Assembly (NCBI GenBank): GCA_041661605.1
Contig: JBAZUE010000001.1
Span: 159,467 to 223,466 of the forward strand
DNA length: 64,000 bases
Direction: 5' to 3'
Source of the DNA: Candidatus Omnitrophota bacterium
GTDB taxonomy: Bacteria; Omnitrophota; Gorgyraeia; Gygaellales; Profunditerraquicolaceae
Shown: piece by piece, positions 1,149-63,786 of the stretch
How the letters are laid out: the number at the start of each line of letters is the position of its first letter
How positions within the stretch are numbered: the first letter of the stretch is position 1
The notes under the pieces: model-generated
Told to the model about the DNA's origin: nothing
Database searches by the model: none
What the model saw: the letters and a program-made list of their open reading frames with translations, nothing else
Made by a program: the position numbers and the translations under genes

Positions 1149-1892
1149 GTGTTTGCTATGATATTTATTTTGTTGCCGGTCTATAACGAGGAAGACAACC
1201 TTCCGACGTTGCTTGAAAGACTGGATAAAGAAATGCGAAAAATAGGATTTTCTTATCGCGTGATTGCTTATGATGATGGAAGTAAGGACACCAGCCTTGC
1301 GATATTGAACAAATATCAAGAATCAATGCCGATTACTGTAATTGGTAAAGAAAAGAATAAGGGGCTGGGTGTTGCTTTAGATTCTTTATTAAAGAAAACA
1401 TTAGAAATGTCTCTTGGCAAAGAAGATATCGCGGTGCTGTTGGATTCCGATGATACTCATAATCCGGAGCATATTTATTCAATGGCGAACAAACTTCAAG
1501 AAGGTTTTGATGTAGTTATTGCTTCCAGGTATCTCCCAGGCAGCAGCGTTGTCGGTGTTACATGGTTTAGGCAGCTTTTTAGTATCGTCGCCTCACTATT
1601 AATGAGGGTACTTTTTCCTATTAAGGGGGTTAAAGACTACACTTGTGGTTATAGGGGGTATTCAATTAACTGCCTTGCGAAAGCTTACGCGAAATTCGGT
1701 GAATGTTTGATTGAAGAAGATAGTTTTGCCTGCATGGCTGAATTAATCATAAAATTACGGAGTATAAATTTAAGAGCGGTTGAGATACCTATTACGTTAC
1801 GTTATGACCAGAAATATGGTAAGAGCAAAATGAATGTAGTTAAAACGATTCAGAGGACTTTGCTAATCTTGTATAAACTTAGAAGAATTTAG
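1149..1892 (+). CDS. GT2 glycosyltransferase (polyprenol-phosphate sugar synthase-like)
   Basis: GTG start. N-terminal ILLPVYNEEDNL and a DDGSKD...DSDD pattern typical of GT-A/GT2. Starts 4 nt after the upstream radical SAM gene. Confidence 0.8.
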   Translation: MFAMIFILLPVYNEEDNLPTLLERLDKEMRKIGFSYRVIAYDDGSKDTSLAILNKYQESMPITVIGKEKNKGLGVALDSLLKKTLEMSLGKEDIAVLLDSDDTHNPEHIYSMANKLQEGFDVVIASRYLPGSSVVGVTWFRQLFSIVASLLMRVLFPIKGVKDYTCGYRGYSINCLAKAYAKFGECLIEEDSFACMAELIIKLRSINLRAVEIPITLRYDQKYGKSKMNVVKTIQRTLLILYKLRRI

Positions 1893-37514: not shown

Positions 37515-38587
37515 TGATTAAGAAATTCCTGATTGTTAATCCGTTTGGGATTGGTGATGTTTTGTTTACTACGCCGGTGATAAAGGCGATTAAGGGGCAA
37601 TATCCGGATAGTTTTATCGGTTACTGGTCGAATTTGCGGGTTAAGCCGATATTAGAAAGCAACCCTCAAATAAATAAAGTTTTCGCCCTTTCGCGCGGGG
37701 ATCTCAAGAAAATTTACCAGGAGTCGTTCTTTAGGGCTGTCTGGAGCGCAATTAAATTAACCCGGGAGATAAAAAAAGAGCGTTTTGATATTTGCCTTGA
37801 TTTTTCTCTTGATCACCGCTATAGTTTATTTGCCAAAATAATGGGGATAGGCAGGCGTATCGGATTTAATTATAAGGGCAGGGGGAGATTCCTTAGCAGC
37901 CGTTTGGACGTAGATGGTTATCATGATAAGCATGTAGTGGAGTATTATTTAGAGCTGCTTAAATTCTTAGATATTCCAGTTAGTGATAAGGGTTTGTTTT
38001 TGGCGGTTTCTCCGGGCGGTGAATTAAAAGCGAGAAATCTGCTTGCGGCATGTGGAATCGAAGAGAAAGATTTAGTAATTGGCATTGCTCCCGGAGCAGG
38101 CGGCAGTTGGGGGAAGGATGCGGTTTATAAGCATTGGCCGGCACTAAAATTCGCTCAACTGGGGGATAGGTTGGTGGATGAGTTTAAGGCTAAGGTGGTA
38201 ATCCTGGGAGATGAATCGGAGCGTGAGATCGCCGAGGTAATATTGCATGCTATGCGCAATAAGCCGGTAGATTTGGTGGGTAAGACGGGATTAGAGATTT
38301 TCCCGGGAATAATCAAAAATTGCAATTTAGTTATTACTAATGATGGCGGGCCGATGCATATGGCGGTGGCGCTGGGGGTTCGTTCAGTTTCTGTGTTTGG
38401 GCCGGTGAGTGAAGCGGTGTATGGGCCGTTTCCTCCAGGCAGCGAGCATGCAGTTTTAAAATGGGATATGGATTGCCGGCCGTGCTATAAGAATTTCAGG
38501 TTACCGGTTTGTGATAGAGATAGGGAGTGCTTGAAGCAGGTGGATGTTGATAAGGTCTTTGATGCGGTGGCGAAGTTATTAAGTTAA
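37514..38587 (+). CDS. GT9 glycosyltransferase (LPS heptosyltransferase family)
   Basis: FLIVNPFGIGDVLFTTPVIKAIK and TNDGGPMHMAVALG motifs. TAATG overlap with manC. Confidence 0.85.
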   Translation: MIKKFLIVNPFGIGDVLFTTPVIKAIKGQYPDSFIGYWSNLRVKPILESNPQINKVFALSRGDLKKIYQESFFRAVWSAIKLTREIKKERFDICLDFSLDHRYSLFAKIMGIGRRIGFNYKGRGRFLSSRLDVDGYHDKHVVEYYLELLKFLDIPVSDKGLFLAVSPGGELKARNLLAACGIEEKDLVIGIAPGAGGSWGKDAVYKHWPALKFAQLGDRLVDEFKAKVVILGDESEREIAEVILHAMRNKPVDLVGKTGLEIFPGIIKNCNLVITNDGGPMHMAVALGVRSVSVFGPVSEAVYGPFPPGSEHAVLKWDMDCRPCYKNFRLPVCDRDRECLKQVDVDKVFDAVAKLLS

Positions 38588-38642
38588 GAATTGTTTTGTA
38601 ACTTATGGAGCTTGAGACGGTTACGTAGACTGTCTACTGAAA
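38586..38642 (+). repeat. AAGAATTGTTTTGTAAC half-element ending in the palindrome GTAGACTGTCTAC, abutting the start codon at 38643
   Basis: aagaattgttttgtaacttatggagcttgagacggttacGTAGACTGTCTACtgaaa followed by ATG. Begins within the upstream gene's stop codon. Confidence 0.8.
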
Positions 38643-40973: not shown

Positions 40974-41516
40974 ATGAAGGCAGTTTTTCTGGATAGAGAT
41001 GGCGTAATAAATAAATACCCTGGTGACAGGTTGTATGTAACTTCGCTTAAGATGTTTAAATTCCTGCCGCGGGCAAAAGAAGCGATTGTTTTGTTGAGCA
41101 GGGCGGGTTTTGAGATATTCGTGGCATCAAATCAGGCCGGTGTGGGCAAGGGGTTTTACTCTCAAAAAACACTGGATGCGATAACTGCCAAGATGCTTAA
41201 GGGTATTGAACAGGCAGGCGGGAAAGTCACCAAGGTTTATTATTGCACGCATCACAAGGAAGCCGGCTGCAGCTGCCGGAAGCCAAAGCCGGGGTTGCTT
41301 AAAAAAGCGGCCCGGGAATTTAAGGTTAATCTAAAGAAAGCGTATTTTGTGGGTGATACTATACGTGATGTGCTGACTGCCCATGCGGCGGGCGCTAAAT
41401 CCATTCTAATCTTCTCCGGTAAAGAGAAATTATCTAATCAGAAAGACTGGGAAGTAAAGCCGGATTTTGTGTTTAAGGATCTTCTGGCTGCCGCGAAATT
41501 TCTAACAAATAATTAA
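40974..41516 (+). CDS. gmhB: D-glycero-beta-D-manno-heptose-1,7-bisphosphate 7-phosphatase (HAD-IIIA)
   Basis: FLDRDGVIN, SNQAGVGKG, and Zn motif CTHHKEAGCSCRKPKPG. Confidence 0.85.
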   Translation: MKAVFLDRDGVINKYPGDRLYVTSLKMFKFLPRAKEAIVLLSRAGFEIFVASNQAGVGKGFYSQKTLDAITAKMLKGIEQAGGKVTKVYYCTHHKEAGCSCRKPKPGLLKKAAREFKVNLKKAYFVGDTIRDVLTAHAAGAKSILIFSGKEKLSNQKDWEVKPDFVFKDLLAAAKFLTNN

Positions 41517-41519
41517 TTA

Positions 41520-41575
41520 AAGAATTGTTTTGTATCTCAAGTATTTACAAATAGTTACATAGACTGTCTACTGAT
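41520..41575 (+). repeat. AAGAATTGTTTTGTA half-element ending in the palindrome TAGACTGTCTA, abutting the start codon at 41576
   Basis: aagaattgttttgtatctcaagtatttacaaatagttacaTAGACTGTCTActgat followed by ATG. Same length (56 vs 57 nt) and same ends as the copy at 38586. Confidence 0.8.
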
Positions 41576-47551: not shown

Positions 47552-48643
<1,092 letters not shown>

Positions 48644-48680
48644 GGAAAGGCACCCCGCGCTGATTAGCGCTGCGCGGGTG

Positions 48681-48696
48681 TCCTCCTTGTGGAGGA
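48681..48696 (+). promoter_or_regulatory. Hairpin able to sequester the pgk Shine-Dalgarno sequence
   Basis: TCCTCC-ttgt-GGAGGA is a perfect 6-bp stem whose 3' arm is the SD, 7 nt upstream of the ATG at 48704. Confidence 0.4.
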
Positions 48697-48703
48697 ATTA
48701 TTA

Positions 48704-49885
48704 ATGGCGAAGTTGACTTTAAAAGATGTTGATTTAAAGAATAAGACGGTGCTGGTGCGCGCGGATTTTAATGTGCCGCAGGATGCCAGCTTGAATATTA
48801 CTGATGACACGCGAATCCGGGCGACTATACCTACTTTAAAATATATTTTAGAGCATGGCGCAAAAAAAATGGTATTAATGAGCCATTTAGGCAGGCCGGA
48901 TGGCAAGGTGGTTGCTAAATACAGCCTTAAGCCTGTAGCTGCGCGCTTAAAAGAGTTATTAGGGCAGGAGGTATTATTTCTTAATGACTGCGTAGGCGAC
49001 TCCATTAAGCCGGATATCGATAAATCAAAAGAAAAGGTTGTCTTGCTTGAGAATTTACGATATCACGCCGAAGAAGAAGGCAATGACGCTGATTTTTCCA
49101 AGAAGCTGGCGTCTTTAGCGGATATATTTGTTAACGATGCTTTTGGCACAGCGCACCGGGCTCACGCCTCAACTGAAGGGGTAACGCATTTTTTAAAATC
49201 ATGTGCAGGGCTGCTTTTGGAAAAGGAGATTAAATATTTGGGCGAGGCGGTTAAAGATCCGCAAAAACCGTTTATGATTATCCTGGGCGGGGCAAAGGTT
49301 TCGGATAAAATCGGCCTTATTGAGAAACTCCTGCCTAAGTGCGACGCTATTATCGTAGGCGGCGGAATGGCTTATACTTTCTTGAAGGCGCAGGGAAAAC
49401 AGATTGGAAATTCAAAGTTGGAAAAAGAAAAGCTGGAGACAGCCAAGTCAATTTTAGATAAAGCCAAACAGTTAAATAAAGAAATACTGTTACCTGTTGA
49501 TAACATAATAGTTGATAATATTGACGCTAACGCTAAAACTGAAATCGCAGGCGAAAATATACCTGACGGCAAGATTGCCGTGGATATCGGTCCCAAGACA
49601 ATCAAATTATTCGAAGATAAGTTAAGATCCGCTAAAACCATTGTCTGGAACGGGCCGATGGGCATATTTGAAATGGATGCTTTCAGCAAAGGCACGCGGG
49701 AGTTAGCCGGTTTTATCGGCAGCCTGAAATGTATTTCAATTATCGGCGGCGGGGATACGGCGGCGGCTATCGCCAAATTCAAATTAGAAGATAAGATGTC
49801 GCATATTTCAACCGGAGGAGGGGCAAGCCTGGAGTTTTTAGAGGGTAAAAATTTACCGGGTATTGCCGCGCTTACTGAAAAATAA
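48704..49885 (+). CDS. pgk: Phosphoglycerate kinase
   Basis: VLVRADFNVP and SHLGRP motifs plus the GGGDT region. The ATG at 48704 with GGAGGA at 48691-96 is preferred over the track's GTG at 48689. Confidence 0.95.
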   Translation: MAKLTLKDVDLKNKTVLVRADFNVPQDASLNITDDTRIRATIPTLKYILEHGAKKMVLMSHLGRPDGKVVAKYSLKPVAARLKELLGQEVLFLNDCVGDSIKPDIDKSKEKVVLLENLRYHAEEEGNDADFSKKLASLADIFVNDAFGTAHRAHASTEGVTHFLKSCAGLLLEKEIKYLGEAVKDPQKPFMIILGGAKVSDKIGLIEKLLPKCDAIIVGGGMAYTFLKAQGKQIGNSKLEKEKLETAKSILDKAKQLNKEILLPVDNIIVDNIDANAKTEIAGENIPDGKIAVDIGPKTIKLFEDKLRSAKTIVWNGPMGIFEMDAFSKGTRELAGFIGSLKCISIIGGGDTAAAIAKFKLEDKMSHISTGGGASLEFLEGKNLPGIAALTEK

Positions 49886-54222: not shown

Positions 54223-54672
54223 ATGATTAGAAAGGCGAAAATAAGTGATATAAAGCAAATTCAGGAGTTGATTGCCTGTTTTGCCAAGCGGGATGAGATG
54301 CTGCCCCGTTCGCTGAATGAACTTTATGAGAATATAAGGGATTTCTGGGTATATGAAGATAAAGGCAGGGTAGCTGGATGCGCGGCGCTGCATATCTCCT
54401 GGGATGGCTTAGCGGAAATTAAATCTTTGGCAGTGGCTAAAAATAAACAGGGCAAAGGTATCGGGCAGGACCTGGTGGTAGCCTGCATGGCGGAAGCCAG
54501 GGTTATGGGGGCAAAGAAGGTTTTTGTGTTAACATATAAACCGGAATTTTTTAAAAAGTTAGGTTTTAAAAGAATCAAGCATGATGCCCTTCCGCATAAA
54601 ATCTGGGCGGAATGTATTAACTGCTGTAAATTCCCCAATTGCCAGGAAATTGCCCTGTTAAAAATCTTGTAA
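54223..54672 (+). CDS. GNAT-family N-acetyltransferase (short ArgA-like type)
   Basis: Acetyl-CoA motif LAVAKNKQGKGIGQDLV. C-terminal KIWAECINCCKFPNC tail. Confidence 0.75.
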   Translation: MIRKAKISDIKQIQELIACFAKRDEMLPRSLNELYENIRDFWVYEDKGRVAGCAALHISWDGLAEIKSLAVAKNKQGKGIGQDLVVACMAEARVMGAKKVFVLTYKPEFFKKLGFKRIKHDALPHKIWAECINCCKFPNCQEIALLKIL

Positions 54673-54694
54673 AATCTAAATAATATGGTACAAT
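54667..54694 (+). promoter_or_regulatory. Extended -10 promoter upstream of leader copy A
   Basis: TTGTAA (54667-72), 16 nt ending in TGg, TACAAT (54689-94). Confidence 0.4.
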
Positions 54695-54730
54695 CTTAAA
54701 ACTTGTTATTAATTGGTCATTGGTGGTTTG

Positions 54731-54785
54731 ACACCCGGCCCGAAAGGAAGTGGCCGGTGTGCCCTTTGCGGGCAAGGAGGAAGAG
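54731..54785 (+). promoter_or_regulatory. Structured 5' leader, copy A (two hairpins plus strong SD) upstream of the acyl-CoA dehydrogenase/etf genes
   Basis: ACACCCGGCC-cgaaaggaagt-GGCCGGTGT, then GCCC-tttgc-GGGC, then AAGGAGGAAGAG and ATG. Near-identical to 63137..63190. Confidence 0.6.
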
Positions 54786-55940
54786 ATGGATTATTTGTTG
54801 ACTGATGAACAGAAGATGATCAAGGAGTTGGCGCATAAGATTGCCGAAGATAAGATTCGTCCGGCTGCGGCTAAATATGATATCAGTGAAGAGTATCCCT
54901 GGGATGTTTTAAAGGTTATGGCTGAATCTGATATGTTTGGATTATTCATCCCTGAAGAGTACGGCGGGTTTGCCACCAGTGTTTTTAATTTATGCCTTGC
55001 TACTGAAGAGTTTTCCCGGGCCTGCGGAGGTATCGCTGTTTGCTATGCTGCCAGCGCCTTAGGGACATTTCCGATTGTTTTATTCGGTGATGATGAGCAG
55101 AAGAAGAAATACCTGCCGGATTTGGCGAAAGGCAAGAAGGTAGCGGCATTTGCGATTACTGAACCGGAGGCAGGCTCAGATGCTTCAGGGATAAAGACTA
55201 CCGCGAAAAAAGAAGGCGATTATTATATTTTAAACGGTCTGAAGCATTTTATTACCAATGGCGGTGACGCCGAGACTTATGTTGTGATTGCCATGACTAA
55301 TAAGTCAAAAGGCGCCCGTGGGGCTTCAGCTTTTATTGTAGAAAAGGGGACGCCGGGTTTTACTTTCGGTAAGAAAGAGGATAAATTCGGCATCCGTGCA
55401 TCGAGTACGCGTGAGTTAATCTTTACGGATTGCAAGATTCCCGCAAGAAACCTTCTTTCTAAAGAGGGTATGGGTTTTATCGTGACGATGAAGACTTTTG
55501 ATATGTCTCGACCGGGAGTAGCTGCGCAGGCTTTAGGTATTGCTCAGGGCGCGTTAGAGTTAGCGGTAAAATACGTGCGCGAGAGGGTACAGTTTGGAAA
55601 ACCTATTTCAAGTTTCCAGGGAATTCAGTGGATGTTAGCGGATATGGCAACGGAGGTTGAGGCAGCGCGCGGCCTGGTATATTCGACTGCCAGGATGGTT
55701 GATGCCGGAATCAAGGACGTGGCAAAAGAATCCGCGATGGCCAAGATGTATGCTTCGGATGTAGCGATGAAGGTTACGGTTGATGCTTTGCAGTTATTCG
55801 GCGGGTATGGTTATATGAAGGATTATCCAATTGAGAAATATGTGCGCGATGCCAAGATTACCCAGATTTACGAGGGGACAAATCAGGTGCAGCGTAATAT
55901 TATCGCTTTGGCATTGATCAAAGAAATGGCTAAAATTTAG
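54786..55940 (+). CDS. Acyl-CoA dehydrogenase (butyryl-CoA dehydrogenase-like)
   Basis: Start moved to the ATG at 54786 behind [23 protein letters not shown] motif, QLFGGYGY motif and catalytic YEGT near the C-terminus. Confidence 0.9.
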
Positions 55941-56011
55941 GTAATTATAGTTAATAATAAGTAAAAGTAAGTAAGTTTGAGTAAGTAAGGTAATCAGATA
56001 GGAATTAAAAT

Positions 56012-56794
56012 ATGAATATAGTAGTTTGTATAAAACAGGTCCCTGAGACAACTGAAGTAAGGATTAATCCTGAGACAAATACGCTTATGCGCGAAGGGGT
56101 AAAGTCAATTATTAACCCCTTTGATATGTACGCGATTGAAGAAGCGGTGCGGCTTAAGGAAAGATTCGGGGGTAAGGTTTCTGTGTTGACAATGGGGCCG
56201 CCGCAAGCGGATGGGGCTTTACGCGAAGCAATATCTATGGGGGCAGATGAAGGATTCTTGGTCTGCGACCGCGCTTTTGCCGGAAGCGATACCTGGGCAA
56301 CCAGCTATACTTTGGCGGGAGCAATTAAGAAATTGGGCGCGTTTGATCTGATTATTTGCGGCAAACAGGCTTCAGACGGGGATACGGCGCAGGTTGGGCC
56401 GGGCATATCCACGCATTTAAATATTCCGCAGGTAACTTATGTAAAAAAAATAGAAGAGGCAACTGATAAATTGATGAAGGTTGAGAGGATGCTGGAGGAA
56501 GGATTTGAAATCATCGAGACTCCGCTGCCGGCGCTTTTAACCGTAGTTAAAGAGATCAATGAGCCGAGGATACCTTCGTTAAGAGGATTGATGAAGGCAA
56601 AGTCGGCTAAGATTACTACTTTTACCCAGAAAGAATTACAGTTGGATCCGCAGCAGATTGGCCTGTGCGGCTCACCTACTCAGGTTGTAAAGATATTTAC
56701 TCCTACTCCCAGGGTTGGCGGACAGATGCTTACGGGCGAGATTCCCGATATAGCCAGGCAACTGGTAGATTTAGTTAAAGGCGAGGTTAATTAA
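56012..56794 (+). CDS. etfB: Electron transfer flavoprotein beta subunit
   Basis: MNIVVCIKQVPET..., LTMGPPQA and ICGKQASDGDTAQVGP motifs. Confidence 0.9.
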   Translation: MNIVVCIKQVPETTEVRINPETNTLMREGVKSIINPFDMYAIEEAVRLKERFGGKVSVLTMGPPQADGALREAISMGADEGFLVCDRAFAGSDTWATSYTLAGAIKKLGAFDLIICGKQASDGDTAQVGPGISTHLNIPQVTYVKKIEEATDKLMKVERMLEEGFEIIETPLPALLTVVKEINEPRIPSLRGLMKAKSAKITTFTQKELQLDPQQIGLCGSPTQVVKIFTPTPRVGGQMLTGEIPDIARQLVDLVKGEVN

Positions 56795-56795
56795 G

Positions 56796-58040
56796 ATGCC
56801 GATTTCGATTATTATTGAGAAATGCACGGGTTGTTCTCTTTGCGTAAAAGCCTGCCCGTTTGACGCAATCCGTATAATGGACAAGCTGGAGAGCAGTGGT
56901 TCGGCCTCCGATAGCCGAAGCCAGAAGAAAGCGGTAATCGATTTAAATAAATGCACTCTTTGCGGAGCCTGCAAGGACGCCTGTAAGTTTAAGGCAGTTT
57001 TGTTGGAGAAAACTCCGGCTAAATGTGATTTGCCGGATATAAAAGGTTATAAGGGGATATGGGTGTTTGTTGAGCAGAAGAATGGCAGGGTGCAGTCGGT
57101 TTCATATGAGTTATTAGGCAAGGCGCAGGAGTTGGCCAGGAAATTAAATTGTCAGGTGAGCGGGGTTTTGATCGGTAATAAATTAGAGGACCAATTGGAT
57201 GAGCTGATCTTTTGCGGAGCGGATAACATATACCTGGTAGAGGATCCGGCGCTAGCGAATTTTCAGGATGAGCCGTATACGAATATTTTAGTTGAGTTGG
57301 TAAGAAAATATAAACCGGAGGTCCTTTTATGCGGGGCAACAAATATAGGCAGGTCTTTAATTTCGCGCGTGGCGATAAATATTAAAGCCGGTTTGACCGC
57401 GGATTGCACCGGCCTGGATATCGATCCTGATAAAAAGATACTATTACAGACGCGACCAGCTTTTGGCGGAAATATTATGGCGACAATCATTTCCCCAAAT
57501 TACCGGCCGCAGATGGCGACAGTGCGGCATAAAGTATTTACTCCAATGCCGGCGGATAAAAAACGCAAGGGTAAAGTTATCCGGGAAAATTTTGACAGTT
57601 CTCTTTATGTCTCGCGTACGAAGCTTTTGGATATCATCGAAGAAATTGAATCTACGGTAAATTTATCCGAAGCGGATGTTATTGTCTCCGGGGGTCGAGG
57701 TATGGGGGGAGCTGAAAATTTCAAGATGCTGGAAGAATTAGCGCATGTGTTGGGCGCGGCAGTCGGCTCAAGCCGTGCGGCAGTGGACAGCGGCTGGATG
57801 CCTTATTCGCACCAGGTTGGACAGACCGGCAGGACCGTGGCGCCGAAGATTTATATTGCCTGTGGAATAAGCGGCCAGATACAGCATCTTGTGGGAATGC
57901 AATCCTCGAAGATTATTATCGCCATCAATAAAGATCCCGAAGCTCCGATTTTTAAGGTAGCTACTTACGGAATTGTCGGTGATTTATTCCAGGTTGTTCC
58001 TGCTTTAATCCAAGCTTTTAAGTCTTCTCTGCGAAAATAA
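56796..58040 (+). CDS. etfA: Electron transfer flavoprotein alpha subunit with an N-terminal 2x[4Fe-4S] ferredoxin domain
   Basis: CTGCSLCVKACP and CTLCGACKDAC cluster motifs in the first ~70 aa, then the canonical EtfA sequence (SGGRG, YIACGISGQIQHLVGM). Confidence 0.9.
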   Translation: MPISIIIEKCTGCSLCVKACPFDAIRIMDKLESSGSASDSRSQKKAVIDLNKCTLCGACKDACKFKAVLLEKTPAKCDLPDIKGYKGIWVFVEQKNGRVQSVSYELLGKAQELARKLNCQVSGVLIGNKLEDQLDELIFCGADNIYLVEDPALANFQDEPYTNILVELVRKYKPEVLLCGATNIGRSLISRVAINIKAGLTADCTGLDIDPDKKILLQTRPAFGGNIMATIISPNYRPQMATVRHKVFTPMPADKKRKGKVIRENFDSSLYVSRTKLLDIIEEIESTVNLSEADVIVSGGRGMGGAENFKMLEELAHVLGAAVGSSRAAVDSGWMPYSHQVGQTGRTVAPKIYIACGISGQIQHLVGMQSSKIIIAINKDPEAPIFKVATYGIVGDLFQVVPALIQAFKSSLRK

Positions 58041-58060
58041 GCTTACCCGCAAAAATAAAT

Positions 58061-58192
58061 AAGACGCTTTATGTATCCTCTTGGCATATCTAATGGTTAC
58101 AAAACAATTATTTTCTGCCTAATTTCAGCTATCTAAATCAAAAGAATTGTTTTGTAACTTATTGATAGGAATAGGTTTAGATAAAGCGTCTT
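58061..58192. repeat. 132-bp nested-palindrome element of the same family
   Basis: Perfect 12-bp terminal inverted repeat aagacgctttat / ataaagcgtctt. Inner boxes gttacaaaacaattatttt (58096..58114) and aaaagaattgttttgtaac (58140..58158). Confidence 0.8.
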
Positions 58193-58300
58193 ACGGAGTT
58201 ACGGAGTTTGCGTATACTGTCTACTTTGCATGAATATGCATTGTTTTGCTCTATAACAACCCTGATTTCAGCTATATGTCAAAGAATGTAAAGATTTTCC

Positions 58301-58329
58301 TTGACAAGATTGCTGAAGTTATTTATAAT
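58301..58329 (+). promoter_or_regulatory. Sigma70-like promoter for the HTH-smc genes
   Basis: TTGACA (58301-06), 17 nt, TATAAT (58324-29). Confidence 0.55.
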
Positions 58330-58337
58330 ATTTTCCA

Positions 58338-58374
58338 GATTGCTTCGCCACTTCGTGGCTCGCAATGACGAGGA
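58338..58374 (+). repeat. ATTGCTTCG-hairpin-CTCGCAATGACG element, full copy, in the 5' leader of the HTH-smc genes
   Basis: gattgcttcGCCACttcGTGGCTCGCAATGACGaggag; core at 58359..58370. The internal GCCAC/GTGGC stem differs in sequence from copy 36084 but still pairs. Confidence 0.85.
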
Positions 58375-58385
58375 GAACAGGGGTT

Positions 58386-58568
58386 ATGGTAAATACAAAT
58401 TTGATGACTATTGAAGATCTGGCGGATTATTTAAAAGTAACGCGCAGGACTATTTATGATTGGCTAAAGCATAATAAGATTCCGGCGCTAAAGCTCGTCG
58501 GGCAATGGCGCTTTAAAAAAGATAAGATTGATGACTGGCTTGAAGGCCAGCAGTCGCAACCACATTAG
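58386..58568 (+). CDS. Small excisionase/MerR-type helix-turn-helix DNA-binding protein
   Basis: LMTIEDLADYLKVTRRTIYDWLKHNKIPALKLVGQWRFKKDKIDDWL matches the HTH_17 'excisionase family' pattern. The ATG at 58386 behind AGGAG is preferred because the track's ATG at 58365 lies inside a repeat core. Confidence 0.75.
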   Translation: MVNTNLMTIEDLADYLKVTRRTIYDWLKHNKIPALKLVGQWRFKKDKIDDWLEGQQSQPH

Positions 58569-58582
58569 AAAGGGAGTTAACC

Positions 58583-61500
58583 ATGTATTTTAAAAGATTA
58601 GAACTTCTGGGTTTTAAATCATTTTGCGATAAGACCGTGCTTAACTTTGAGCCCGGGATTACGGCGGTGGTTGGCCCAAATGGCTGTGGGAAATCAAATA
58701 TTTTTGATTCAATCCGCTGGGTATTAGGAGAGCAGTCGGCAAAGTCGCTGCGCGGCTCAGAGATGCTGGATGTCATTTTTAACGGCGCGGACAATAAGGA
58801 GCCGTTGAGTATGGCCGAGGTTAGCCTGGCTTTTGATAATTCTACCCGTTTCTTTAATGTTGACCATCCGGAGGTTTTGATTACGCGCCGGCTTTTCAGG
58901 AGCGGCGAAAGCGAGTACCTGTTGAATAAGGCCGTTGTGAGGCTTAAGGATATACTGGATTTGTTATTAGGCACAGGGATAGGAGCGGAAAGTTATTCCA
59001 TTATCGCGCAGGGAAAGATAGACCTGGTTTTAAGCAGCCGTCCGGAAGACCGGCGTATGGTTTTTGATGAAGCAAGCGGCATAAGTAAATATAAAGCCCA
59101 GAAGAGGGAAACTACGCGCAAGCTGGATGAGACAGAACAAAACCTGCTGCGTGTAAATGATATTGTCGCCGAGGTCAAGCGGCAGATCAGCTCTCTGGAG
59201 CGCCAGGCCAATAAAGCGCGCAGGTACAAAGAGGTTTTTGAGGAATTAAAATTAAAAGAAACTGACCTGGCAATCATGGATAAAAAGGATTTTCTTAAAC
59301 AAAAAAATGAGATTGCCGGAAAACTGGAAGATTTAAAAAAAGAGGATTTGGTATTAGCGGATGCGGTCGCTGAACTGGAGGTTAAGATCGCTAACCGCCA
59401 GTCTGAATTAAAGGCATTAGAGGAAAGTTTGATGGAGGGGCGCAGCCAGATACTTAATCTGGAGAACAGCCTGGTGCGCAATAATGAACACATCGTTTTT
59501 AACCAGCAGCGTATCGCGGAGCTCGAGGAAAATAGCCAGGTTTTAGAATCACAGATTGAGCAGGCAAGAAGCAAGCTGCTGCAGGATGAAGAAAAGCTGG
59601 AGAAGGTTCGGGTTGAATACTCAAGCCTGAAACAGAATATAGATGAGAAGCAGTCTGTATTATGGCAGAAAGAAGAGGAGATCAATAAGCTTGGCTCTTC
59701 GATTAAGAGTTCACTGGAAGCTATTTCTGAAAGCAAAAAGCTTATCCTGGATTTGGAAACCAGGATTTCCAATACCCATAATGAAGTAGGTGAGTTTAAT
59801 TCCAAACATCAGGTATTCCTGGCGCGCAAAAAGAGGCTGGAGATCGAGAAGGCAAAGGTTTATGAAGAAAAGGTTATTTCCGAGGAGGCCTTAAATAAGG
59901 TTACGCAGGAGCTGGCAAGCACCCGGCAGCTGGTGGAAGATTTCAGGCAAAAAATCGCTAATGTAAAGACCAGCCTTGAACATGAAGGATTAAATTTAAA
60001 CGGGATTACCCAGGAGATTACCAGGCTTGAAAATGAAAAGCTTACCCTGGTTTCACATAAAGAATTCCTGGAGAAACTGAAGAATAAATATGATGATATC
60101 GGCGAGTCACTTAACGCGGTGATTTATCTGGACAACCTGCCTAAGGAAAGTACAACCGGGTTGGTGGTGAAGATCCAGAATCAATCGGCTTTAAGCGATG
60201 AGGACAAGGCGTATTTTGGCTCCGCGGCCTTCAGGATAAGCGGAGAGGCCAAACCCATTGAGTTAGACACTCAGAATATCAGCGAAAAGATCGCCAACCT
60301 TGAAGAAAATCTCGGAGAGCTAAAGAACAGGAAGCTGCTGCGCCAGACTTGTATTTCAGAATTAACTAAGATGTCGGATGAATTGGAGCAGGAGCTGCGT
60401 AACCACGAGATTTCTTTAGCCAATAAGGAATCCAGCCACGCTACTACTTTGGAGCAGTTTAATAAAATAAAAGAAGAAGAGGATGTTATTGTTATGGAAT
60501 TGGCGGATGTGGCCCGTGAAATCTTTACGATCGAGCAAAATTTAGCCGATGCCCAGGCTAAGCTTTCCAGCTTAAACAATGAAGAGAGGCTAATGCAGGA
60601 TTCAATCGTACAGGAAGAAGATAATATTTCCTTAAACAGCAAGGCGCGTGAAGAGGTGCTGGTTTTAATTACCCAGACCAAGACGGAGATTGAGGCCTTA
60701 AACAAGCGTTTTAGTTCTGACGCGGCAACCTTAAAAATCCTCGATGAAACTTACGCGCAGGATAAGGCCAGCCTTGATAATATCGAGAGGCAGATATCTG
60801 ATGCAAAAGAACGCCAGCAGGGTCTAAGGGCTGAGATCGTTGATTGCCAGAATAAAATTCATGAATCAGAGGCGCAGATCAAAGAAAAGAAAGTATCTCT
60901 ATCGGATGTCGAGTTTAAATATAACGAAGTATCCAGCGGTACGGTCGGGGTGGCCAAAAGGATCGAGACTGACCGTAAGCATCTAGAGCAGATAAAAAAT
61001 CAGCTGCATGAACTGGAGATGCAGGATAAGGATCTGGATTACCGGTATTCGGCAATAAAAGAGAGGATGGCGTCGGCATATAAGATTGATTTAGACCTTT
61101 TGGAGGAGCCGGCTAAAGAATTAGACAGGCAGGCTTTGTCCTCTGAAATCAGCGAATTAAAAAGAAAGCTGGATTCTTACGGCACGGTTAATCTGGTGGC
61201 TATTGAAGAGTATGATGAGTTAAAACAGCGCTATGATTTTCTTATCCAGCAACAGACTGATCTTTTGAATGCCAAGGAGTCGATGCATCAGGCAATCTTA
61301 AAAATCAACCGTACGACCAAGCAGATGTTTATGGAAACCTTCGAGAAGGTGAAGGTGGAGTTTAAAAATTATTTCCGCCTGCTTTTTAACGGAGGGGATG
61401 CCCAGTTGTTTTTGGTCGATGAGAATGATCCGCTTGAGTCCGGGATTGAGATTATCTGCCGGCCTCCGGGAAAGAAATTACAGAATGTGCTCCTTTTAAG

Positions 61501-61807
61501 CGGCGGGGAAAAGAGTATGTCGGCGATCGCGCTGATCTTCGCTATTTTTAAAGTCAAGCCTTCGCCGTTCTGCATACTGGATGAGATTGACGCGGCCCTT
61601 GATGAGGCTAATGTAGACAGGTTCTCCAGGGTTTTGCAGGAGTTCTCCAAGACTTCCCAGTTTATCGTGATTACGCATAATAAGAAGACGATTGTGAACG
61701 CCAGCGTTATGTATGGCATTACCATGCAGCAGTCGGGAGTCTCAAAGATAGTTTCGGTAAAATTGTCGCAGGATAAGCAAAAGCAGGAACAGCCGGTTAC
61801 GGTTTAA
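58583..61807 (+). CDS. smc: Chromosome segregation protein SMC with an atypically short hinge region
   Basis: Walker A GPNGCGKSNIFDSIRWVLGE. Signature and Walker B LSGGEKSMSAIALIFAIFKVKPSPFCILDEIDAALD. Long coiled coils. The central region (~60080..60290) lacks a recognisable canonical hinge. Confidence 0.85.
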   Translation: MYFKRLELLGFKSFCDKTVLNFEPGITAVVGPNGCGKSNIFDSIRWVLGEQSAKSLRGSEMLDVIFNGADNKEPLSMAEVSLAFDNSTRFFNVDHPEVLITRRLFRSGESEYLLNKAVVRLKDILDLLLGTGIGAESYSIIAQGKIDLVLSSRPEDRRMVFDEASGISKYKAQKRETTRKLDETEQNLLRVNDIVAEVKRQISSLERQANKARRYKEVFEELKLKETDLAIMDKKDFLKQKNEIAGKLEDLKKEDLVLADAVAELEVKIANRQSELKALEESLMEGRSQILNLENSLVRNNEHIVFNQQRIAELEENSQVLESQIEQARSKLLQDEEKLEKVRVEYSSLKQNIDEKQSVLWQKEEEINKLGSSIKSSLEAISESKKLILDLETRISNTHNEVGEFNSKHQVFLARKKRLEIEKAKVYEEKVISEEALNKVTQELASTRQLVEDFRQKIANVKTSLEHEGLNLNGITQEITRLENEKLTLVSHKEFLEKLKNKYDDIGESLNAVIYLDNLPKESTTGLVVKIQNQSALSDEDKAYFGSAAFRISGEAKPIELDTQNISEKIANLEENLGELKNRKLLRQTCISELTKMSDELEQELRNHEISLANKESSHATTLEQFNKIKEEEDVIVMELADVAREIFTIEQNLADAQAKLSSLNNEERLMQDSIVQEEDNISLNSKAREEVLVLITQTKTEIEALNKRFSSDAATLKILDETYAQDKASLDNIERQISDAKERQQGLRAEIVDCQNKIHESEAQIKEKKVSLSDVEFKYNEVSSGTVGVAKRIETDRKHLEQIKNQLHELEMQDKDLDYRYSAIKERMASAYKIDLDLLEEPAKELDRQALSSEISELKRKLDSYGTVNLVAIEEYDELKQRYDFLIQQQTDLLNAKESMHQAILKINRTTKQMFMETFEKVKVEFKNYFRLLFNGGDAQLFLVDENDPLESGIEIICRPPGKKLQNVLLLSGGEKSMSAIALIFAIFKVKPSPFCILDEIDAALDEANVDRFSRVLQEFSKTSQFIVITHNKKTIVNASVMYGITMQQSGVSKIVSVKLSQDKQKQEQPVTV

Positions 61808-61810
61808 AGC

Positions 61811-62977
61811 TTAACCGCAGCAGGTGGTATTCTTGCCATGGTTTTTGGCTTTGTAAAGGGATTTATCTGAAACGGTAATTAAATCCGCAGGACACTGACC
61901 ATTCTCGGGGAAGGTGGCAATCCCCAAACTTACTGTCAGCATTTTATTAGGAAAGATCTCTTCGTTTAAGAACGGGTATTTTTGAATATCCACTCTCAGG
62001 CGTTCAGCGATCATATAGGCTTCTTTTTGGTCGGTCTGCGGCAGGATGACGCTGAATTCTTCGCCTCCGTAACGGCAGACGTGGTCCATTTTGCGCGATT
62101 GATTGCGCAGAAGCTGCGCTAAATCTTTTAATATTTTGTCTCCCGCCTGATGCCCCAGGGTGTCGTTATAAATCTTAAAATTATCTATATCTATGGTAAC
62201 TAAGCTAAGTTTGGTTTTGGTCGCTTTGGCTTTTTCCAACTCTGTTTGCAGGAGATATTGAAAATACCCGTGATTCCAGAGGTTAGTCAGGTAATCCGAG
62301 TGCGCCCGTTCTGCGGTCAATTCAAAAAGCTGAGAGTTTTCAATCGCCAGGCCTGCCTGGTTAGCCAGCATGGTGAGCATGCGGATATCATCTTTGGTAA
62401 TCGGATCGTTTGTGATAAAATTGTCCGCCACGATTATCCCGTTTACCCGGTCTTTTGCCTTTAAAGGGATAAGCAAAAGTTCGCTGCTTTCCAGCATTTT
62501 AATTACAGGAGAGTTGCGGTATTTTTGGATAGTCTGGCCGGTCAAATGCAGGGGCATGCCTTCTAAGACCGCTAAAGAAAGAGGGTTTTCCTCTTTATCA
62601 TACATAGATACTTTTAAGTTCCTGACCTGGCGGTTAAAACCGGATTCCAATACCGAGCTGGAGTTTTTAAAAGCGTTGATTAAGTCTTCCAGGTCCATTT
62701 TTTCTTCTTCAATTTTGGTCCAGGCGGCGTTGGCTTCTTCGCCGCTTTCCGGGCCGATACCCATTTTACCCTCGATAATCTTTTCTTTTTCATTAACCAG
62801 AAAAAGCATCGCCCGGTTGAAGCCTAAACCGGTATGCGCGGTTACTCCGGTAAGAATGATGTAGAGGATCTCATCCAGTTTTAAGGTGGTGCGCATGGCA
62901 TTGGAGATCTCATAGAGTATCCCCAGTTCGATTTTGGTGCGCTCAAGTTCTATCTTTAGTCTGTTTAATTCTTCCAT
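61811..62977 (-). CDS. GAF-domain diguanylate cyclase (GGDEF) with I-site
   Basis: N-terminal coiled coil, GAF-like middle region, GGEEF active site, and RKMD (RxxD) five residues upstream, as in PleD-type I-sites. Confidence 0.85.
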   Translation of the reverse strand: MEELNRLKIELERTKIELGILYEISNAMRTTLKLDEILYIILTGVTAHTGLGFNRAMLFLVNEKEKIIEGKMGIGPESGEEANAAWTKIEEEKMDLEDLINAFKNSSSVLESGFNRQVRNLKVSMYDKEENPLSLAVLEGMPLHLTGQTIQKYRNSPVIKMLESSELLLIPLKAKDRVNGIIVADNFITNDPITKDDIRMLTMLANQAGLAIENSQLFELTAERAHSDYLTNLWNHGYFQYLLQTELEKAKATKTKLSLVTIDIDNFKIYNDTLGHQAGDKILKDLAQLLRNQSRKMDHVCRYGGEEFSVILPQTDQKEAYMIAERLRVDIQKYPFLNEEIFPNKMLTVSLGIATFPENGQCPADLITVSDKSLYKAKNHGKNTTCCG

Positions 62978-63045
62978 AATGTTTTAAGTCTAACATATTT
63001 CTTGCCGATGTCAAGTAAGCCGGTTTGATATTGGACAGGAATTAG

Positions 63046-63074
63046 TTGACATTTCCCGGGCATTCCTATATAAT
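63046..63074 (+). promoter_or_regulatory. Sigma70-like promoter for the secreted-protein gene
   Basis: TTGACA (63046-51), 17 nt, TATAAT (63069-74). Confidence 0.55.
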
Positions 63075-63136
63075 TAATCAAATATTACCATACCCCGCGC
63101 TTATAATGATTTGCGCGGGTATGCCTTTGTAGGTTA

Positions 63137-63190
63137 ACACCCGGCCTAAAAGGAAGTAGCCGGTGTACCCTTGCGGGTAAGGAGGAAGAA
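63137..63190 (+). promoter_or_regulatory. Structured 5' leader, copy B, upstream of the secreted-protein gene
   Basis: ACACCCGGCC-taaaaggaagt-AGCCGGTGT, then ACCC-ttgc-GGGT, then AAGGAGGAAGAA and ATG. The closing pair of hairpin 2 is A-T here and G-C in copy A. Confidence 0.6.
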
Positions 63191-63646
63191 ATGGCTCGAT
63201 TATTAAAAAGTGTTTTAATAATTTTTTCTTTTTTATTCCTTTGTGCGACGGTTGTTTTTGCAGAAGATATTACTATTACGACTTATTATCCTTCTCCTTA
63301 CGGAAGTTATAACGCTTTGCAGACAAACAGGCTTGGCGTGGGAGATAATAATGCCGATGGTGTTTTGAATTCTTCCGATGTGCCTGGTACTAACGGGGAT
63401 GTATGGGTTAGTGGACATATCACGATGGGGTATCAGATTGTTACGGTGGTTATCCCTAATACTTATTCTATTGGATGGTATACCTGTGATTGTCCCGCAG
63501 GCAAGAGGGTTTTGGGCGGGGCATGTTCCGGAACGGGTGTTGCTTACACGTATATTGACGGTGGCGGCGCGGGCTTCCACTGTTATAAAAATGATCAGTG
63601 GGGGGCGAACTGGCAAATCCAGGCTGTTTGCGCTAATATGCTGTAA
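63191..63646 (+). CDS. Small secreted Cys-rich protein of unknown function
   Basis: Signal peptide MARLLKSVLIIFSFLFLCATVVFA|ED. Conserved-looking ITITTYYPSPYGSYNALQ segment. Six Cys in the C-terminal half. Strong SD, promoter and terminator. Confidence 0.7.
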   Translation: MARLLKSVLIIFSFLFLCATVVFAEDITITTYYPSPYGSYNALQTNRLGVGDNNADGVLNSSDVPGTNGDVWVSGHITMGYQIVTVVIPNTYSIGWYTCDCPAGKRVLGGACSGTGVAYTYIDGGGAGFHCYKNDQWGANWQIQAVCANML

Positions 63647-63678
63647 TAGGTATAGTTTGTAAGATTCCTTGTGAGGTT

Positions 63679-63722
63679 TCCCTCCTTTCTGCGTCTATTA
63701 ATGCAGGAAGGAGGGATTTTTA
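63679..63722 (+). terminator. Rho-independent terminator after the secreted-protein gene
   Basis: tccctcctttctgc-gtctattaat-gcaggaaggaggga (14-bp stem with one G.U position) followed by TTTTT. Confidence 0.8.
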
Positions 63723-63726
63723 TTGT

Positions 63727-63755
63727 TTGACAGTAATAGGGGGGTGGGTTATAAT
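63727..63755 (+). promoter_or_regulatory. Sigma70-like promoter for recA
   Basis: TTGACA (63727-32), 17 nt, TATAAT (63750-55). GGAGG SD at 63777-81. Confidence 0.55.
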
Positions 63756-63786
63756 ATTTTTTTAAATTTAAACAGTGGAGGTTAGA

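Follow-up and report, generated by a model that had tools for sequence, protein, structure and literature searches.

The window considered here is a 64,000-nt stretch of contig JBAZUE010000001.1 (positions 159,467 to 223,466) from a Candidatus Omnitrophota bacterium; coordinates are counted from its first letter and refer to the + strand unless marked (-). Two of its transcription units open with near-identical structured leaders. The first leader precedes the acyl-CoA dehydrogenase (ACD) gene (54786-55940), which heads an operon with the genes for EtfB (56012-56794) and a ferredoxin-EtfA fusion (56796-58040); the second precedes a gene for a 151-aa secreted-type protein (63191-63646) that has a signal-peptide-like N-terminus, several Cys residues and no Pfam match. 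Both gene assignments agree with those of an earlier note on this DNA, which took the leaders to be a cis-regulatory RNA defining a small regulon. The two leaders are here considered, with high confidence, to be copies of a modular RNA element specific to the Candidatus Omnitrophota lineage; the element appears to be a gene-expression signal used across that lineage and not a switch for two genes.

The leaders differ by one 1-nt indel and six substitutions over 54731-54785 and 63137-63190, and their two-hairpin portions (54729-54775 and 63135-63180) are ~90% identical. The similarity over ~55 nt that had been noticed earlier is borne out by this alignment, by a repeat finder that groups the copies (54729-54789 and 63135-63195) as family D11, and by the degenerate 30-mer ACACCCGGCCNNAAAGGAAGTNGCCGGTGT of hairpin 1, which has exactly 2 matches in the 64 kb against 0.00 expected from 100 shuffles. 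Each leader contains one unit of the canonical subtype. Unit A (54729..54775; covariance-model scores 65.6 and 69.1 bits, E ~1e-13) consists of hairpin 1 (H1, 54731-54760), with a UGA flank, a bulged C and the loop CGAAAGGAAGU carrying GGA at 54746-54748, followed by hairpin 2 (H2, 54761-54773), which reads GCCC-UUUGC-GGGC. Unit B (63135..63180; 70.3 and 67.3 bits) has a UAA flank, an H1 at 63137-63166 with the same bulged C and the loop CUAAAAGGAAGUA (GGA at 63152-63154), and an H2 at 63167-63178 of ACCC-UUGC-GGGU. ViennaRNA folds both leaders into H1 (ACAC-C-CGGCC ... GGCCGGUGU) with the bulged C that the earlier note had drawn, H2 directly after it, a single-stranded Shine-Dalgarno (SD) sequence AAGGAGG, and then ATG; the fold z-scores of the two leaders taken alone are unremarkable (-1.7 and -0.05). 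The SD of the ACD gene lies at 54774-54780, separated by a 5-nt spacer from the ATG at 54786, and that of the 151-aa gene at 63179-63185; the sequence confirms that both copies share the 3' end AAGGAGGAAGA(G/A)ATGG.

The promoter-like sites proposed for the two leaders also hold up when compared with the consensus. The ACD/Etf site at 54667..54694 (TTGTAA-16-TACAAT) matches at 9/12 positions, has an extended -10 TG, and is kept in the orthologous ACD leaders of loci L072, L041 and L061; the site of the 151-aa gene at 63046..63074 (TTGACA-17-TATAAT) is a 12/12 match to the sigma-70-type consensus. A conserved upstream mini-open reading frame (GUG...UAA in copy B) was considered and rejected, the frame being lost in copy A and across the H2 loop lengths. 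The statement that the leader is no known Rfam motif is supported by scans with Rfam 15: the whole window gives 0 matches at the gathering score, and permissive scans of both leaders (E <= 10) return chance-level matches only, to Lnt (20.6 bits against a threshold of 55), AsxR and CRISPR-DR57.

Architecture, covariation and range of the module

The family was delimited with a covariance model built from 14 units (R1), a broader model built from 37 units (R2) and two database scans. The metagenome scan used the pattern CACCCGGC-N9-18-GCCGGTGT-N10-16-AAGGAGG, in which the lower H1 stem and the SD are fixed while the loop and H2 are left free; it returned at least 120 stretches with 121 units, and all counts given below over 121, 120, 118 or 96 units hold among the matches listed. 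A unit is ~45 nt long (39-47 nt) and opens with a purine-rich 5' flank that often contains a stop triplet, UAA or UGA. H1 has a stem of 11-13 bp with the conserved base ACACC/GGUGU, the bulged C, and an apical loop with a central GGA; H2 is a clamp hairpin of 4-5 bp with variable sequence that directly follows H1; units lie in sense orientation, and the last unit of a leader abuts the SD AAGGAGG through a junction of 0-2 nt. A start codon is found 4-8 nt past AAGGAGG in 110/118 cases, and the distance from the loop GGA to the GGA of the SD is 27-32 nt in 94/96. At the other edge, a stop triplet stands immediately 5' of CACCC in 51/120 units, and in 34 of the 118 an upstream open reading frame (ORF) of 80 codons or more stops 0-7 nt short of the unit, so that the unit there makes up the whole intercistronic spacer.

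GGA occupies a fixed central position in 96 of 121 H1 loops, and GG does so in 108; in the 12-nt loop class U3, A4, G7, G8, A9 and U10 are nearly invariant, and positions 2 and 11 covary (UA 31, AU 15, CG 11), which lengthens the stem. The commonest loops are C-UUAUCGGAUA-G, C-CUAUCGGAUG-G and GC-UAAUCGGAAUU-GC. The SD-like loop described in the earlier note, AAAGGAAGU in the window, proves to be a minority subtype, and the ACD ortholog in L061 has UAUCGGAUC in its place; what is constant throughout the family is the central GGA. H2 reaches at least 4 bp in 97/121 units, against ~15/121 when shuffled, and takes the form of 31 different stems; loop and H2 types correlate, which divides the family into subfamilies.

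The 124 distinct units aligned to R2 form standard pairs in 98.4% of cells, and compensatory, both-side changes occur in 12 of 13 pairs (247 cells); none of 500 shuffles reaches any of the covariation measures, and the pairing falls by half when the 3' partner is shifted one column. Because this alignment is model-fitted, and most of its rows have a lower H1 stem imposed by the search patterns, the cleanest evidence comes from H2 and from the loop-closing pair; all four H2 pairs covary across the family. H1 also covaries in units found by the model only, with stems such as CACCUGGCC/GGCCAGUG, CACCCAAUC/GAUUGGUG, CACCCCAGC/GCUGGGUG, CACCCGACGC/GCGUCGGUG and GACCCUUCC/GGAAGGGUC, and most of these units retain the GGA loop. 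The orthologous ACD leaders provide a comparison at a single locus: H2 is GCCC/GGGC in the window and ACCC/GGGU in L072, a double compensatory change, while L061 keeps the unit with loop UAUCGGAUC and an H2 of the UCAC/GUGA type. The H2 covariation is therefore real and general, and the exchange of G-C for A-U between the two window leaders, which had been put forward as a covariation on two copies, is the same swap. Two loop types are interchangeable at this one locus. Compensatory changes between orthologs, together with a loop that is kept over covarying stems, argue for selection on both the structure and the loop sequence.

In total, the covariance models and the two scans yield more than 150 copies, and all full-motif copies come from metagenome-assembled genomes (MAGs) or metagenome contigs of Omnitrophota type; the possibility raised in the earlier note, that no further homologues or covariation would appear, has thus not materialized. 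The second scan was an SD-agnostic exact-pattern search of one genome per species (CCGGCC-NN-AAAGGAAG-NN-GCCGG, with flanks, hairpin 2 and SD left free). It found 44 stretches, ~28 of which have the complete motif (ACAC...GUGU flanks, hairpin 2 and SD); all of these ~28 are from MAGs labelled Candidatus Omnitrophota or from a few 'Planctomycetales' bins, and several MAGs have matches on more than one contig. The remaining matches, from GC-rich Proteobacteria and Acidobacteria, have none of the flanking features and are attributed to chance. Of the distinct units recovered without reference to an SD, 21/23 lie 8-12 nt ahead of an ATG preceded by GGAG, and the other two directly precede another unit. 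Unit density is 4 per 64 kb in the window, and L010 has four loci in 7.4 kb; extrapolated from density, the number of units would be of the order of 100 per genome.

Loci syntenic with the window, at 83-87% nucleotide identity, are L038, L043 and L044 (MAG binchicken_co220_28, CAYRUB01), L041 (Omnitrophota STB_130) and L072 (a metagenome contig); this synteny places the window in a genome of Omnitrophota type. CAYRUB01 is deposited as 'uncultured Planctomycetales bacterium binchicken_co220_28'; it carries the module at several loci, with ~85% nucleotide identity to the window, and its NCBI 'Planctomycetales' label is probably wrong. A separate, GC-rich 'Planctomycetales' MAG (CAZAPM01; L025, 5086-5210) contains two H1-like units with AAAGGAAGU loops that are followed by GGGGYGUCCCCUUYAGG repeats, apparently within a coding region or at its end; downstream there is neither an SD nor a start codon, and these units are atypical of the family. 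Literature searches found no description of a structured RNA, leader or repeat in Omnitrophota, and searches with sequence strings returned unrelated primer matches only. Likenesses to known RNA and DNA elements were also considered and set aside: the 12-mer AAGGAAGCAGCC of signal recognition particle (SRP) RNA domain IV is common to one copy in L043 only and is not general to the family, and likenesses to the tRNA D-loop/T-loop, ANTAR dual hexaloops, lambda boxB/nut, HK022 put, integron attC and CRISPR repeats are not family-wide.

Genes served and repeat-like behaviour

One to three units form the 5' leader or the full intercistronic spacer of many housekeeping genes. The downstream genes number in the dozens, are functionally unrelated, and mostly encode abundant housekeeping proteins: ribosomal proteins S2, S3, S8, S13, L6 and L7/L12; GroEL, CspA, RRF, MetK, Ndk, Pgk, IlvC, IlvE, FabG, ACP and PurE; and glutamate dehydrogenase, aldolase, P-II, PstS, PhoU, MlaD, SpoVG, hydrogenase subunits and response regulators, with many lipoproteins and secreted proteins among them. 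Ten of these assignments (Ndk, S2, CspA, L7/L12, P-II, MetK, SpoVG, IlvC, GroEL and RRF) were checked against Pfam. Units also stand ahead of internal genes in conserved operons, as in the S8 to L6, gap to pgk, and fabG to acpP junctions, and between tRNA genes and the next protein gene (L100, 2298-2439, and L122). The Thr-Tyr tRNA spacer of L122 has two further hairpins outside the model.

The family also behaves as an interspersed repeat, with gain and loss of units, nesting, and apparent recombination junctions at unit boundaries. Tandem units with a period of 44-45 nt occur in L027, L041, L072 and L134. At the ACD leader the window has one unit, whereas L072 and L041 have two each; at the leader of the 151-aa gene the window has two, L038 has a single one, and L002 has one unit accompanied by a lone hairpin 2. 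Nested units, in which a full H1 and H2 lie within the loop of an outer H1, are found in L088 (380-505), L099 (3365-3480) and L008 (5325-5435(-)); they fold into a three-way-junction-like structure with z-scores of -2.0 to -3.8. L002 (794-1444) is 100% identical to window positions 63132-63782 from the 5' edge of unit B onward and encodes an identical 151-aa protein, and the sequence upstream of its unit is the context that precedes a CsaA-like tRNA-binding-domain gene in L015 and L077; this junction reflects either recombination at the module or a short-read assembly chimera arising from the repeat.

The window itself holds four units at three loci; two of these units were overlooked in the earlier note. 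A diverged unit (63088..63134; 15.6 and 22.2 bits) lies in tandem with and directly upstream of unit B; its H1' (63090-63122) has the form AUACCCCGCGC-loop-GCGCGGGUAU and is followed by H2' at ~63123-63134, and the unit is missing from the orthologous leader in L038. The fourth unit (48648..48697; 18.6 and 25.2 bits, E = 0.0012), also diverged, occupies the 60-nt spacer between pgk and an upstream ORF that stops at 48643 and whose C-terminus reads as GAPDH. Its H1 (48651-48681) is CACCCCGCGC-loop-GCGCGGGUG, its H2 (48682-48695) is CCUCC-UUGU-GGAGG, and the pgk ATG is at 48704; orthologs of the unit are found in L041 at 1564 and in L072 at 10470. The pgk SD is the 3' arm of H2 in this unit, and in the L041 ortholog an additional hairpin, CCCUUC-UUGU-GGAGGG, likewise holds the SD; some units therefore sequester the SD instead of presenting it. 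A weak match at 1264-1374(-) lies antisense within a glycosyltransferase gene and was judged spurious.

Candidate mechanism and alternatives

Selection on structure in the single strand, the sense orientation, the fixed SD junction and the loop GGA together argue for a function on the mRNA, during translation initiation or close to it. The most likely mechanism, put forward tentatively, is the docking of a CsrA-type regulator on the H1 loop and the SD. Dimers of CsrA and RsmE bind two GGA sites, one in a hairpin loop and the other overlapping the SD, at a spacing of 10-63 nt; sites BS1 and BS2 of Bacillus subtilis hag are an example of such a target. The module presents both elements, as a GGA is found in most H1 hairpin loops, including those of both canonical window units, and a second GGA lies over the SD within the bridging range. 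It is hypothesized that the module works on the mRNA at translation initiation and that the compact H2 draws the loop GGA and the SD GGA together, so that the two would form a bipartite site for a dimeric GGA-recognizing regulator of the CsrA type or a functional analogue. The bound regulator would occlude or expose the ribosome-binding site (RBS), co-regulating ~100 growth-related genes per genome, and tandem units would raise avidity. Two Omnitrophota entries in the KEGG Orthology (KO) table of Seymour et al. 2023 (PMC10066038) list csrA (K03563) and fliW (K13626) and do not list hfq. These entries lend weak support; taken with the GGA-loop/SD-GGA architecture, they make a CsrA-type regulator the most likely reader. 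CsrA/RsmA-RsmE leaders such as those of B. subtilis hag (BS1/BS2), Escherichia coli glgC and Pseudomonas fluorescens hcnA resemble the module in combining an apical-loop GGA with a downstream SD GGA, and the tandem GGA hairpins recall the multi-hairpin architecture of RsmZ/CsrB. In contrast to these leaders, the module has a long, GC-rich, sequence-conserved stem with a bulged C and an obligatory clamp hairpin, and by extrapolation is present as near-identical copies at ~100 genes per genome, ribosomal proteins and chaperones included.

Several observations weigh against a regulator of this kind. The loop consensus is U-A-N-N-GGA-U with an invariant A at -3, whereas the consensus of enterobacterial and pseudomonad CsrA is A-N-GGA, with A at -2. 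CsrA sites elsewhere are not known to depend on a clamp hairpin or on a 12-bp stem whose base and bulge are conserved; therefore something else may read H1. About 20% of units have no GGA, including the diverged unit at 63088-63134 and the gap-pgk unit at 48648-48697, and abundant housekeeping proteins are unusual targets for a repressor regulon. A tblastn search for csrA in the window and ~1 Mb of loci found none, save on one unrelated Solibacteraceae contig, the sample being too small to be informative; FliW, Hfq and flagellin likewise gave no relevant match by tblastn in the ~1 Mb of loci, again too small a sample to be informative. A unit fills the 51-nt gap between tRNA-Tyr and tRNA-Gly in L122 (1198-1411), and another lies 47 nt upstream of tRNA-Gln in L141 (1936-2104), neither with an SD; the module can therefore exist independently of translation, and such units suggest that it takes part in processing or stabilizing RNA, or else has spread neutrally.

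A broader form of the proposal is doubtful but worth stating: the GGA-loop/clamp cassette at the RBS of ~100 growth genes may constitute a phylum-specific 'expression code' through which one trans-factor, CsrA-FliW or some other protein or RNA, would switch bulk translation. If true, this would be a bacterial analogue of the eukaryotic 5'-terminal oligopyrimidine (5'-TOP) regulon, would be well matched to ultra-small, host-dependent cells with alternating dormant and hyperactive states, and would make the cassette a recombination and variable-number tandem repeat (VNTR) hotspot that reshuffles genes as well.

The alternative that survives best, though it is considered somewhat unlikely, is that the H1-H2 block is an mRNA punctuation or stability element that marks cistron boundaries without any regulator. 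It would shield the upstream cistron from 3'->5' exonucleases and protect the 5' end of the downstream one, and might also act as an endonuclease processing signal, comparable to the RNase III sites of phage T7 or to transcribed REP elements, that sets the abundance of segments in polycistronic RNAs. This would fit the units that begin directly after an upstream stop codon, those in tRNA spacers and leaders, where no translation takes place, the GC-rich and stable hairpins, and downstream genes that require high steady-state expression. It leaves unexplained the near-invariant UA..GGAU loop and the fixed 0-2 nt SD junction. An H1 of 11-13 bp is also short for RNase III, and by our reading of the sequence the first hairpin of leaders with a recognizable -10 box begins ~14-17 nt past that box, which would leave ~8 unpaired 5' nt, above the tolerance of classic stabilizers. 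The intercistronic hairpins of T7 (R0.3, R1.1 and others) similarly form a structured spacer just upstream of the next RBS in polycistronic mRNAs for highly expressed genes; however, they are roughly 20-bp hairpins with internal loops, whereas the module has a shorter H1, a conserved loop and a second small hairpin. STAB-SD sequences and 5' stem-loop stabilizers (B. thuringiensis cryIIIA, E. coli ompA and B. subtilis aprE) share the stable 5' structure and, in the window subtype, a leader SD-like sequence that is not used for initiation; they differ in that most module loops are not SD-like, many units are operon-internal, and the element is repeated genome-wide.

A domesticated or largely neutral interspersed repeat, of the kind represented by MIRU, BOX, REP or Correia elements, is a rather improbable identity for the module. 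Such a repeat would spread by duplication, slippage and recombination, be tolerated only in sense orientation in transcribed spacers, and affect expression incidentally. The tandem period, the variation in unit number at the orthologous ACD and 151-aa leaders, nesting within H1 loops, the correlated subfamilies, and the switch of L002 to an L015-like sequence exactly at the 5' edge of a unit would all be expected of such a repeat, although the last could be an assembly chimera. Against it, orientation and position are far too regular, every one of the 23 distinct units from the SD-agnostic scan abutting either an SD with its start codon or another unit, and the ortholog compensatory changes and loop conservation indicate selection on structure and loop. 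No copies were found in 2.9 million viral contigs. Nor was a RAYT/IS200-type transposase found by tblastn in ~1 Mb of loci, which is a weak negative.

MIRU, BOX, REP-BIME, ERIC and Correia elements resemble the module as short units (40-100 bp) in transcribed intergenic or intercistronic spacers that occur in tandem, with copy numbers that vary between close strains; like MIRU, the module is co-oriented with the operon and shows an intercistronic VNTR of MIRU type, and like BOX it is modular. It has no sequence similarity to any of them, no terminal inverted repeats and no associated transposase in the ~1 Mb searched, and is set apart by its strict SD junction and by a loop conserved over covarying stems. 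The small ORF of MIRU is absent, and reading frames are not coupled: units measure 39-47 nt, lengths that are not multiples of three, and changes in H2 loop length shift the frame. REP/BIME elements are imperfect palindromes that occur in both orientations, mostly 3' of genes, and are associated with RAYT, whereas the module is sense and lies directly 5' of starts in 21/23 cases. The module thus seems functionally nearest to a CsrA-type leader and genomically nearest to MIRU/BOX-type repeats, and is most probably a member of none of these families.

Less credible again is a ribosome standby site or translational enhancer, in which a purine-rich H1 loop would pair with the 3' tail of 16S rRNA and pre-load the 30S subunit by the true SD. 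Going by the standard 16S 3' end, the window itself having no 16S gene, the window loop AAAGGAAGU appears to match the extended SD AAAGGAGGU at 8/9 positions, and the module accompanies classic abundant housekeeping genes; however, this loop belongs to the minority, the common loops UAUCGGAU and AAUCGGAAUU offer the anti-SD only the 3-nt GGA, and one loop type stands in for the other among orthologous ACD leaders. Predicted SD accessibility is also not raised: native units have a mean unpaired probability of 0.495 and shuffled ones 0.468 (Wilcoxon p = 0.11, n = 113). The same comparison gives no support to the idea of an 'RBS insulator', a module that keeps the SD unpaired.

The lead of the earlier note, a riboswitch-like or ligand-sensing leader with ACD/Etf and the secreted protein as a small regulon, is very improbable, since the range of genes and the simple two-hairpin shape argue strongly against it: a conserved, structured, sense-strand leader with real covariation does stand ahead of both genes, and that part of the claim is retained, but the same module also precedes more than 100 functionally unrelated genes and tRNAs in which no coherent set is apparent (translation, chaperones, glycolysis, amino-acid, lipid and phosphate metabolism, lipoproteins and tRNAs), often intercistronically without a promoter of its own, between tRNA genes, or in tandem and nested arrays, its copy number runs from 1 to 3, and it has neither a junction, a conserved internal pocket nor an Rfam match. 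A protein-binding leader and a translation enhancer, which the same note had also named, remain options.

The module is a previously uncatalogued RNA family, with more than 150 instances, strong covariation, unusually firm comparative support and no Rfam entry, from a candidate phylum that has no cultured member and in which gene regulation is almost uncharted; fusion of an RNA element to the RBS across a large set of housekeeping genes of a candidate phylum is unusual. If a single factor reads the GGA loop, phylum-wide translational control could be tested with a single RNA and a single protein. In annotation, the module marks which start codons of Omnitrophota MAGs are genuine and, probably, which genes are highly expressed, and can serve as a taxon marker, as in the window-syntenic MAG labelled 'Planctomycetales'; its near-identical 45-nt copies also warn of assembly chimeras and collapsed repeats. 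For synthetic biology, it may represent a natural, portable 'insulated RBS' cassette.

Other features of the window

The EtfA encoded at 56796-58040 has an N-terminal 2x[4Fe-4S] ferredoxin domain (Fer4 at residues 5-67); an N-terminal ferredoxin on EtfA is the layout of some electron-bifurcating Etf complexes. The 151-aa protein has an N-terminal TTYYPSPYGSY motif and a Cys-rich C-terminal half. Its gene is followed by an intrinsic-terminator-like hairpin (63679-63716) of 16 bp with the anti-SD-like 5' arm UCCCUCCUUUCU; SD, gene and hairpin make up a monocistronic unit (63179..63716), and the gene is probably very highly expressed. A second 12/12 sigma-70 consensus promoter (63727-63755) lies directly past this terminator and ahead of recA, whose start, seen in L001, is beyond the window end.

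A second upstream sequence is shared by 38573-38640, 41507-41574 and 58208-58240 and includes the near-palindrome CGTAGACTGTCTACT; the + strand has 3 occurrences of it at no more than 1 mismatch, against 0.34 expected. These sites lie just upstream of a DegT-type aminotransferase-like gene (38643), a glycosyltransferase-like gene (41576) and an HTH/SMC-like pair (~58583); the sequence looks like an operator or a shared promoter-leader of a different regulon.

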